From: Escherichia coli
GTDB taxonomy: Bacteria > Pseudomonadota > Gammaproteobacteria > Enterobacterales > Enterobacteriaceae
Direction: 5' to 3' (one strand)
Assembly (NCBI RefSeq): GCF_003991155.1
Contig: NZ_CP031293.1
DNA: 64,000 nucleotides
Made by a program: the position numbers and the translations under genes. This document shows positions 48 to 5,374 of the stretch, piece by piece; the first letter of the stretch is position 1, and every line of letters starts with the position of its first letter. The notes beneath the pieces are model-generated. The model was not told where the DNA came from and did no database searches. It was given only the letters and a program-made list of their open reading frames with translations.

Positions 48-116
48 ATAATTGCATTATGCCCCGTACTTTTGTACGGGGTTTGTACTCTGTATTCGTA
101 ACCAAGGGGTCAGCTC

Positions 117-2981: not shown

Positions 2982-3073
2982 CTGACAAATATCAATTAAC
3001 AATTGATGATTTTGCCAACAGCCTACATAGCGCGATATACTGAAAATTCTCGCAGCAACTGAATGTTAAGCCT

Positions 3074-3559
3074 ATGAAATACGATACTTCCGAGCTTTGT
3101 GACATCTATCAAGAAGATGTTAACGTCGTGGAACCGCTGTTCTCCAACTTTGGCGGACGGGCGTCGTTTGGCGGACAAATAATCACGGTAAAATGTTTCG
3201 AGGACAACGGGTTGCTGTACGATCTGCTCGAACAGAATGGCCGTGGTCGTGTTCTTGTCGTCGATGGCGGTGGTTCTGTTCGTCGCGCACTGGTCGATGC
3301 TGAACTGGCGCGTCTGGCAGTACAAAATGAATGGGAAGGTCTGGTCATTTACGGCGCGGTGCGTCAGGTAGATGACCTGGAAGAGCTGGATATCGGCATC
3401 CAGGCGATGGCGGCAATTCCGGTTGGTGCCGCTGGCGAAGGCATTGGCGAAAGCGATGTCCGCGTCAATTTTGGCGGTGTCACCTTCTTCTCCGGCGACC
3501 ATCTTTATGCCGACAATACCGGGATTATTCTTTCAGAAGATCCGCTGGATATTGAATAA
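3074..3559 (+). CDS. rraA: RNase E inhibitor RraA
   Basis: 161-aa [32 protein letters not shown]... Confidence 0.93.
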
Positions 3560-3576
3560 GTACCTGCCATGCGTTA

Positions 3577-3602
3577 AAAGGGGAATTAAATTCCCCTTTT
3601 TT
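3577..3602 (+). terminator. Rho-independent terminator of rraA (ggggaatt-aaattcccc + T-run)
   Basis: Perfect hairpin followed by TTTTTT immediately after the rraA stop. Confidence 0.6.
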
Positions 3603-3606
3603 ATAC

Positions 3607-4293
3607 ATGGACGTATTCATGCAGAATATTATTCTTTTATTTATATATTTATTACTTATAGTCGTTAACCATTTCCGCTACAAATTCCTTTTGTCTGGCA
3701 ACACGGGTGAAATGATTTTATATTTTGCTAACGTATTTTTTAACCCACTTGCCTTATCATTTATTATCGCCGCAATCATCTGTATAACGATAAAAAAAAG
3801 AAGCAGCCACAGCTTTATTCGCGGCACTTGTTGGTTAATGGGATTATTTCTTATCTATAGCAGCTATACAGTGTGGGAACGACACAGCACATGGGATTAT
3901 ACTTTCCCGGGGCCAGGTATCACCGTCACAGTTCCGAGCAAACAGTGGGTTGCCAATATAGTAAAACAAGGACCAATCCTGGTGACTCGGGATGCCCATG
4001 CTATTTTAGTTATTGTTGCCTTCTCACAAAATGAACTCGGTGTGCATTCAATCGAGGAACTTACCGCGACTCAAAACGGAACTGCACAAATGCATGTTTG
4101 TGATGTTAAGGGATTTGCCTGCGCTTATCAGGAAGGAATTCAAACAATGAGTGATGGCAAAATAAGACATGCTATTTTCATGACTCTACTGGATAACACT
4201 AATTTGATACGACTGGTCGCAGCTATCGACCCAGATTATTTGGACGAATATCAAGAAGAAGTAATGAAAATGATACTTTCTGCCCATCAATAA
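3607..4293 (+). CDS. Hypothetical membrane protein (paralog A, ~3 N-terminal TM helices); strain-specific
   Basis: 228-aa ORF, AT-rich, no recognisable SD; shares motifs with the next ORF (LLSG, F-x-RG-x-CW, WxYTF, ITVT-x-P, C-terminal E-x-M-x-LSA). Start codon uncertain (alternative ATG at 3619). Confidence 0.5.
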   Translation: MDVFMQNIILLFIYLLLIVVNHFRYKFLLSGNTGEMILYFANVFFNPLALSFIIAAIICITIKKRSSHSFIRGTCWLMGLFLIYSSYTVWERHSTWDYTFPGPGITVTVPSKQWVANIVKQGPILVTRDAHAILVIVAFSQNELGVHSIEELTATQNGTAQMHVCDVKGFACAYQEGIQTMSDGKIRHAIFMTLLDNTNLIRLVAAIDPDYLDEYQEEVMKMILSAHQ

Positions 4294-4325
4294 TCTGATG
4301 TGCATGTTAATAATAAGGGATTGAT

Positions 4326-5042
4326 ATGAGATACGTTATCTTATTAATACTATGGATAATAACTACTTTTCTTAGTCATCTTCAGCACAGCAACCTACTG
4401 TCTGGAGATCCTGGCATGGTTGGCGAGTATATCGGTTCAGTATTTCTGGGGCCGTTGTTACTTCCCGTGCTTGTGTCAGGTATTCTGTGCGCATTTATTA
4501 AAAAAACACGTAACTTCGCCAGTTTTACTCGCGGGTGCTGTTGGGTATTGGGAATCCTGCTTTTATCCAAAGTCGGCAATACGTTTCGTATGTTTACCCC
4601 GTGGCAATATACCTTTGAGAATGCTGCGATAACCGTGACTATCCCGAACCGACACTGGAATACGGTTTCCATTAGTACTAATGAAACCATTGATATAAGA
4701 AGTGAGGATAATAGCGTCTTCATTTCTGCTTTCCGCCTGCCCGCAGGACGTAGCGCCGATGACCCGCTGGAAGCGTTAAAGAAGAAGCAGCGAGACAATC
4801 TCAAGGATCAATACAATGAGGAAGCCTTCCAGTTTCATGATTGTAATGCCAAACATTTCACCTGTAAGTATCAGGATGTGTTGATAAATTTTGATGGTCA
4901 GCAGAAAAGAACCATCAGTGTTTATCTTGAAGACACCCCCAGGGCTGTGGGGATCATTGCATTAATGGCGCCAGATACGGCAGATAAATATCGCCAACAG
5001 GCGATGGAGATTATGCTTTCCGCTAAAAATGCAGTGAAGTAA
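4326..5042 (+). CDS. Hypothetical membrane protein (paralog B); strain-specific
   Basis: 238-aa ORF with SD AAGGGA 5 nt upstream of the ATG; paralogous to 3607..4293. Confidence 0.6.
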   Translation: MRYVILLILWIITTFLSHLQHSNLLSGDPGMVGEYIGSVFLGPLLLPVLVSGILCAFIKKTRNFASFTRGCCWVLGILLLSKVGNTFRMFTPWQYTFENAAITVTIPNRHWNTVSISTNETIDIRSEDNSVFISAFRLPAGRSADDPLEALKKKQRDNLKDQYNEEAFQFHDCNAKHFTCKYQDVLINFDGQQKRTISVYLEDTPRAVGIIALMAPDTADKYRQQAMEIMLSAKNAVK

Positions 5043-5047
5043 AAAAT

Positions 5048-5066
5048 AAGGCGCCTTGCGGCGCCT
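5048..5066 (-). terminator. Terminator hairpin between convergent ORF B and zapB (ggcgcc-ttgc-ggcgcc); T-run on the minus strand
   Basis: Perfect GC stem flanked by an A-run on the plus strand, which is a T-run for the zapB transcript. Confidence 0.55.
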
Positions 5067-5080
5067 CTACATGGAAGAGA

Positions 5081-5374
<294 letters not shown>

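Follow-up and report, generated by a model that had tools for sequence, protein, structure and literature searches.

Among the described systems that stand closest to the genes considered here is DcrB, an inner-membrane lipoprotein of Escherichia coli and Salmonella that has the DUF1795 domain (PDB 6e8a) and acts with YciB in membrane fluidity (PMC9487459). Others are the PsbP, CyanoP and PsbP-like lumenal proteins, the periplasmic immunity proteins of type VI secretion systems (T6SS) and the Eag chaperones; the immunity proteins for pore-forming colicins are a further group for comparison. The genes in question, two open reading frames (ORFs) that we call ORF1 and ORF2, lie side by side between rraA and zapB in a stretch of 64,000 nucleotides of the E. 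coli contig NZ_CP031293.1, referred to throughout as the window. An earlier account made from the letters of the window alone, here the sequence-only reading, took them for paralogous membrane proteins inserted at this site and thought of immunity or abortive-infection families. We find that they belong to a small, previously undescribed and mostly enterobacterial family, tied to rraA across genera, whose place in the chromosome is most simply explained as ancestral and whose role may, tentatively, be a protective one.

None of the known systems is matched in full. The PsbP-type proteins (PF01789; 2xb3), 3lyd and BT_1490 are only 9-13% identical to the family; PsbP-type proteins are soluble or lipoproteins, without the three-helix anchor or the conserved cysteine pair of the family, and their photosystem and NDH partners are absent from enterics. 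The T6SS periplasmic immunity proteins TplEi/Tli4 (5h7y), Tsi3 (4luq) and the PldA-bound Tli4_C protein (7wdk) have the same fold as the family, and their genes, which specify signal peptides or lipoboxes, adjoin effectors in T6SS, VgrG or Rhs loci; the present pair, in contrast, has no adjoining effector, a three-helix anchor, a fixed synteny with rraA and no sequence similarity to them that we could find. The Eag chaperones (DUF1795: PA0094/EagT6, 1tu1; SciW, 6xrb) are cytoplasmic and have their genes next to those for prePAAR/Rhs effectors, whereas the present proteins are membrane-anchored, with a domain predicted to be periplasmic and no effector nearby. Colicin immunity proteins are small, with three or four transmembrane (TM) segments, and are encoded beside a plasmid colicin gene, unlike this family, which has a large periplasmic domain, no plasmid copies and no match to a colicin-immunity entry in Pfam or NCBIfam.

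The sequence-only reading had reported two ORFs on one strand, separated by an old duplication to about 30% identity, with a set of shared motifs and a more AT-rich first copy, and on all of this it was borne out. Both ORFs are present on the + strand; BLASTP aligns them end to end (29% identity over 234 columns, E=2e-34), and by this alignment they are full-length paralogs; every listed motif falls in aligned, conserved columns; and the G+C content (GC) is 38.8% in ORF1 as compared to 43.7% in ORF2, with 52% in rraA and 50.4% in the window. Among 1.84 billion representative proteins searched with a profile there were only 34 relatives, all of about 225-240 amino acids (aa) and of the same layout. 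In a neighbour-joining tree, ORF1 groups with the first family gene of L003, an enteric contig that carries both paralogs and has flanks about 85% identical to E. coli, and with the member P0030; ORF2 groups with the second L003 gene, P0029 and the Atlantibacter protein. Since each clade holds several genera, the duplication is older than these genus splits. A VPxxxW motif, the cysteine pair and the topology signals are kept across the whole family, and the invariant residues W111, C173, C180, P107 and L201 (ORF2 numbering) look structural and not catalytic in character.

Profile databases added little to this picture. Scans of ORF1 and ORF2 against Pfam, NCBIfam, PADLOC and PHROGs gave only noise (BOF/YgiW, DUF7649, NMT1_3), the defence hidden Markov models of PADLOC-DB included, of which no family matched either protein at E<=1; profile searches of PDB sequences, run with whole proteins of the family and with just their periplasmic domain, likewise gave only noise (Crb2, kinesin, Spy, Nlh1). 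At E<=10, DUF1795 (PF08786; DcrB/Eag) matched neither ORF1 nor ORF2, and none of the 24 family members scanned at full length or of the 22 scanned as isolated domains; when hhalign compared the family profile with E. coli DcrB, the probability was 0.2%. Pfam PsbP (PF01789) was matched by a single member of 22 (E=8.1e-4, periplasmic domain alone), and not by ORF1 or ORF2. A literature search found no mention of ECs4855 or ECs4854, the locus names of the pair in O157 Sakai.

The proteins were described by the sequence-only reading as having about three N-terminal hydrophobic helices, and hydropathy and two AlphaFold models agree with it. In the ORF2 model (predicted local distance difference test, pLDDT, 72.6) a beta5-alpha-beta4-alpha domain comes after three N-terminal helices, and the ORF1 model (pLDDT 85.5) has the same order of elements. 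Over 24 members the mean number of lysines plus arginines is 4.1 in loop 2 versus 0.6 in loop 1, and because of this enrichment an N-in, C-out topology is predicted. The two cysteines (C173/C180 of ORF2) occur in 23 and 24 of the 24 members and, in the models, face each other on the strands of a beta-hairpin. There is thus good support for each protein being an N-in, three-helix inner-membrane protein with a domain of about 140 residues and PsbP/Mog1/DUF1795 fold in the periplasm, and for a disulfide between opposite strands of that domain (C173-C180 in ORF2) that staples it; the periplasmic location is a prediction from the family-wide positive-inside rule and from the presence of the cysteine pair in the C-terminal domain.

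The modelled domain has the antiparallel sheet with flanking helices that defines the PsbP/Mog1 superfold and can be superposed on PsbP, Mog1 and DUF1795 structures. The structural matches (scores in brackets) were 3lyd (11.7), BT_1490 (11.3), CyanoP (11.3), PA0094 (10.9), LpqN (10.0), Mog1 (9.4), SciW (9.1), TplEi (9.1), DcrB (8.2) and Tsi3 (7.9). Neighbours in AFDB are PsbP-C-terminal or DUF1795 proteins, some of them with other membrane anchors, while BFVD held only weak, fold-level matches to phage lipoproteins. For the PsbP/DUF1795 fold, which is widespread, an architecture of three membrane helices joined to a periplasmic domain would be new.

Substitution patterns indicate that both genes are real, functional genes under purifying selection. 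The ratio of non-synonymous to synonymous substitution rates (dN/dS) is 0.16-0.26 for ORF2 and 0.23-0.64 for ORF1, falling to 0.19-0.26 for ORF1 in deep comparisons, as compared to 0.007-0.045 for rraA, menA, hslU and glpF. The rate of evolution of the family is roughly tenfold that of the adjoining genes. The periplasmic domain of ORF1 is the most relaxed part (0.6-0.86 in close pairs, 0.19 in deep pairs). Reading frames are intact in all seven lineages compared, among them E. coli, O157, E. albertii, E. whittamii, cryptic Escherichia and L003, at dS up to more than 1.5. While RraA stays at least 92% identical, family members drop to 19-43% identity, and in every genus the family genes have a GC of 33-44% against 53-56% in the flanks, that is, 10-23 points lower.

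The claim of the sequence-only reading that finds no support is that the pair was inserted. By tblastn, every enteric contig with sufficient upstream sequence has a homolog directly 3' of rraA and in the same orientation; such rraA-adjoining homologs occur in at least eight enterobacterial lineages, and E. albertii, E. whittamii and cryptic Escherichia have them. What lies on the other side varies and zapB is not a conserved partner: the order is rraA-X-pfkA (X being the family gene) in contigs L009, L011, L034 and L035, rraA-X-esterase gene in Kluyvera, and rraA-X-zapB in Enterobacter, where X is only about 19% identical to ORF2; glpFK, an esterase-MFS (major facilitator superfamily)-AraC cluster and a Lipoprotein_9 gene are further neighbours. 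In Atlantibacter a lipoprotein gene stands between rraA and X. Family genes away from rraA were seen only in one separate, non-enteric clade, and a scan of the contigs with a profile of the ORF2-type alignment found Escherichia species only.

Origins from mobile DNA were also considered. An insertion-element origin was rejected, as only short direct repeats at chance level flank the pair and there is neither an integrase nor a tRNA. A phage or plasmid origin was rejected too: tblastn of 50,697 phage records found no family member, and the sole match in PLSDB is NZ_CP141089.1, a 4.94-Mb E. coli record with a non-mobilizable label that is evidently a chromosome filed among plasmids, so there are no true plasmid copies of the family.

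Within E. coli the pair is found in 679 of 5,426 complete genomes (about 12%), always on the chromosome and at a single place, the rraA-zapB site. The sequence-only reading had given rraA and zapB as directly adjacent in K-12 and had called the pair accessory, and both statements hold: the K-12 spacer is only 84 bp, with a different terminator, and the survey of spacer occupancy shows a variable presence. The 1.5-kb segment is at least 99% identical to the window in 109 genomes and about 95.3-95.5% identical in 568, with O157:H7 and O145 among the latter; essentially all O157:H7 genomes sampled have the pair. Between these two allele classes ORF2 has a dS of 0.16 as compared to 0.02-0.08 for the flanks, so that the classes are older than their surroundings, perhaps through recombination or an ancient polymorphism. 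For E. coli against E. albertii, ORF2 dS is 0.34, within the flank range of 0.24-0.67.

The K-12 state is most simply a loss, because homologs are linked to rraA across genera, signs of insertion are lacking and synonymous divergence is like that of the flanks. The simplest history would therefore have the locus downstream of rraA as ancestral, predating the split of the enterobacterial genera and repeatedly lost, with an early tandem duplication and with some 87% of E. coli now lacking the pair through loss. The site has 0, 1 or 2 copies, and relics in E. albertii (which keeps only ORF2), in L034/L009 and in L008 support repeated loss from an ancestral locus. In the one-gene loci L034 (6818-7001), L009 (346-529) and L004 (4740-5001), the conserved hairpin that follows rraA is succeeded by a relic of the Shine-Dalgarno (SD) sequence and start of the first gene, for example ATATATGGACGTAGGTATGC, and then by AT-rich non-coding DNA, which suggests that the first paralog was deleted independently in these lineages. 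At the rraA-esterase site, L008 (846-950) has P0030 followed by a 35-codon P0034-like remnant, while Kluyvera contigs L021-L023 have P0034 alone, which suggests turnover of paralogs at that site. Some E. coli genomes have ORF2 alone, or an insertion sequence (IS) in the locus; for instance, strain TCM3e1 carries an ISKpn26 insertion, and a Shigella dysenteriae protein is an ORF2 fragment fused to a transposase through an IS insertion. In L003 (9761-10123) the second paralog is separated from zapB by an ORF for a truncated Y1 transposase of the IS200/IS605 type. The family offers an unusually clear example of a fast-evolving, often-lost gene that is still tied to one core gene, rraA, across genera.

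Expression of the pair presumably depends on rraA. The terminator-like hairpin after rraA goes with the carrier state and is unlike the K-12 rraA terminator; as an A4G4-5/C4-5T6 hairpin it is kept in the carrier genera (O157, E. albertii, L003, Enterobacter, Kluyvera, L009 and L034), and immediately behind it, 55-60 nt from rraA, come the SD and start codon (ATG) of the first family gene. The T-tract and the ORF1 SD stand too close together for a promoter of its own to fit between them. Most simply, the pair would be transcribed by read-through from rraA, because no sigma-70-like promoter was identified ahead of ORF1 and the hairpin-SD module adjoins it; the transcript would probably end at the hairpin at 5048-5067, which also serves zapB from the other side. 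ORF1 and ORF2 are co-oriented with a gap of 32 nt.

Minimum free energy folds from three genera (window 3557-3624; L003 7938-8006; L032 6943-7006) have a lower stem that extends the post-rraA hairpin and pairs the region after the rraA stop with the SD of the first family gene, an arrangement that could couple translation to rraA. A stem masking the SD in this way was not counted as evidence, as RNAalifold gave no compensatory pairs over five sequences from three independent lineages. An Rfam scan produced only chance matches below threshold.

As it stands, this is a well-described family and not a demonstrated mechanism, and the functional reading that we place first is a tentative one: a conditionally useful, protective role in which the proteins would bind or block an exogenous toxin or an entering phage in the periplasm or at the inner membrane. 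It is ranked first because of the conflict-like evolution of the family (fast divergence beside a near-constant RraA, zero to two copies, relics, low GC), because some T6SS immunity proteins have the same fold, and because one distant member adjoins a DUF4225 remnant. The periplasmic domain would most likely act by binding and without catalysis, because the family has no conserved residues of catalytic type, and the conserved periplasmic loop 1 together with polar residues in the helices suggests that the surface for binding is on the outer side of the inner membrane. A toxin from other bacteria, or a phage on its way in, might be bound and blocked there, the two diverged paralogs might have different specificities, and the genes would be expressed only as far as transcription passes the weak hairpin after rraA. 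If the role is protective, the family would represent a class of chromosomal immunity or exclusion that is independent of mobile elements.

The DUF4225 case is found in L012 (97-2718), where the distant member P0046 follows the last 28 codons of rraA, the only part of that gene present, and where a 148-aa DUF4225 ORF and two 106-aa multi-TM ORFs lie upstream on the opposite strand. DUF4225 is a T6SS/polymorphic toxin domain that acts in the periplasm, and small TM immunity genes lie downstream of it (PMC9765294).

A good deal weighs against protection. The DUF4225 remnant is a single case on the opposite strand and the only toxin-like neighbour of the family; no toxin, T6SS, Rhs, VgrG or phage gene adjoins the pair in E. 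coli or its relatives in most other genera. PADLOC and PHROGs have no match for the pair, and the family is in neither the 50,697 phage genomes nor true plasmids. Immunity or defence genes do not usually keep a stable synteny with a core gene, the proteins that match best in structure are not immunity proteins, and the PsbP fold is functionally promiscuous. Diversifying selection is not seen at the level of whole domains (pairwise dN/dS is below 1 in both), and no promoter-like site was found within 3041-3695, nor any sigma-70-like site between the rraA promoter and ORF1. Of the immunity or abortive-infection families that the sequence-only reading had in mind, then, immunity keeps the argument of a fold common to some T6SS immunity proteins, set against better matches elsewhere, no PADLOC match and no adjoining toxin; an abortive-infection toxin role has no support. 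Superinfection exclusion, as a phage-encoded property, does not describe the pair either, as no prophage genes adjoin it in E. coli. We would go further only as speculation, and consider it unlikely as a whole, that the site 3' of rraA is an ancient hypervariable protection locus of Enterobacteriaceae, where three-helix-anchored, disulfide-stapled PsbP-fold proteins of a class not recognised before neutralise toxins acting in the periplasm or on the membrane, or keep phages from entering, are swapped or lost as threats change and are expressed through coupling to rraA by the conserved terminator-SD module.

Alternatively, ORF1 and ORF2 might be non-essential envelope factors in the manner of DcrB, with a PsbP-fold domain at the periplasmic face of the inner membrane that serves the cell itself, for instance in the homeostasis of membrane or lipoproteins or in support of a transporter; most E. 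coli would have no need of them, and frequent loss would follow from this redundancy. We regard this reading as doubtful taken alone, though nearly as likely as protection. The family falls to 19-43% identity while flanking proteins exceed 90%, the loss from most E. coli, the turnover of paralogs and the persistently low GC are atypical of housekeeping envelope factors, and there is no profile similarity to DcrB. Were it correct, the pair would be a lineage-specific envelope factor for the biology of enterohaemorrhagic E. coli.

It is rather improbable that the genes are decaying relics of the ancestral locus, functionless in this strain. Frequent loss and disruption would fit decay, as seen in the ORF2-only state of E. 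albertii and some E. coli, the IS insertions in TCM3e1 and Shigella dysenteriae and the first-copy relics in L034 and L009; so would the dN/dS of 0.6-0.86 in the ORF1 periplasmic domain in close comparisons, and the lack of a dedicated promoter. Against this, both frames are intact over seven lineages and dS above 1.5, dN/dS is 0.16-0.26 for ORF2 and 0.19-0.26 for ORF1 in deep comparisons, and the cysteine pair, VPxxxW and topology signals are kept family-wide.

A still smaller chance attaches to the proteins being partners of RraA and RNase E, as a membrane tether or a signal input through the conserved cytoplasmic KK.R..SF.RG loop. That the rraA-X adjacency outlasts the downstream change to zapB, pfkA or an esterase gene, that the 55-60 nt gap with its hairpin-SD module is conserved, implying co-transcription, and that cytoplasmic loop 2 is conserved would all agree with such a partnership; however, RraA works without the pair in K-12 and most E. 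coli, is near-invariant next to a very fast X and so gives no sign of co-evolution, and the bulk of each protein is periplasmic, Atlantibacter has a gene between rraA and X, and the adjacency may be merely ancestral. A two-gene toxin-antitoxin or abortive-infection module, one paralog a membrane toxin and the other its neutraliser, is highly improbable, since, although two co-oriented genes for small membrane proteins do stand 32 nt apart, the two proteins are homologous over their full length, unlike toxin/antitoxin pairs, either type persists singly in many lineages, PADLOC gives no match and the family is not on mobile elements.

The features of the locus are collected in the table. ORF1 is listed in the ORF table as 3607-4293 (228 aa); its true start is almost certainly the second ATG at 3619-3621, giving 224 aa, because this ATG aligns with M1 of ORF2, because the RefSeq start in O157 is that ATG, and because it is the sole start kept in L003 and Enterobacter, where an SD stands 7 nt upstream (AAGGAT-N7-ATG before the first family gene). 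The ORF2 SD seen in the window is also that of E. albertii, and reads AATGGA in O157.

Table. The rraA-zapB region of the window (gene order hslU-menA-rraA-ORF1-ORF2-zapB(-)-glpF-glpK) and the predicted parts of the two proteins
Feature	Position	Strand	Basis or remark
rraA (RNase E regulator)	3074..3559	+	ORF list and RefSeq annotation
Terminator-like hairpin after rraA	3576..3600	+	A4-G4..C4-T6 palindrome, 12-nt arms, 100% complementary
ORF1 Shine-Dalgarno-like GGA	3609-3611	+	directly after T-tract
ORF1, 224 aa (ECs4855 of O157 Sakai)	3619..4293	+	sequence, BLASTP, AlphaFold, dN/dS
ORF1 helices (predicted)	residues 2-26, 29-57, 63-89		
ORF1 periplasmic alpha/beta domain (predicted)	residues 92-224		Cys161, Cys168
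ORF2 Shine-Dalgarno AAGGGA	4315..4320	+	5 nt before ATG; sequence
ORF2, 238 aa (ECs4854 of O157 Sakai)	4326..5042	+	sequence, BLASTP, AlphaFold, dN/dS
ORF2 helices (predicted)	residues 2-26, 29-57, 64-90		second helix kinked at Pro43
ORF2 cytoplasmic loop between helices 2 and 3 (predicted)			KKTRNFASFTRG
ORF2 PsbP-like periplasmic domain (predicted)	residues 93-238		Cys173, Cys180
zapB terminator	5048..5067	-	GC-rich hairpin and T-run
zapB	5081..5326	-	convergent core gene, boundary of locus in Escherichia and Enterobacter

The O157 ortholog of ORF2 (L002 2427-3143 in Xuzhou21; Sakai ECs_4854, L030 4982-5608) starts at Met31 in RefSeq (208 aa) and thereby misses the first TM helix; the full frame of 238 codons from the upstream ATG is intact there and conserved across species. 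At the 3' end of zapB (window 5070-5096), the stop and the last codons fall within an inverted repeat of 13 nt, CATGGAAGAGATT / AACCTCTTCCATG; the stop is TAA in the window and TGA in K-12, and the sequence just 3' of it differs too, whereas L003, with both paralogs present, has the K-12-type TGA end. Further along, glpK of O157 Xuzhou21 (L002 4721-5002) is annotated as a frameshifted pseudogene.

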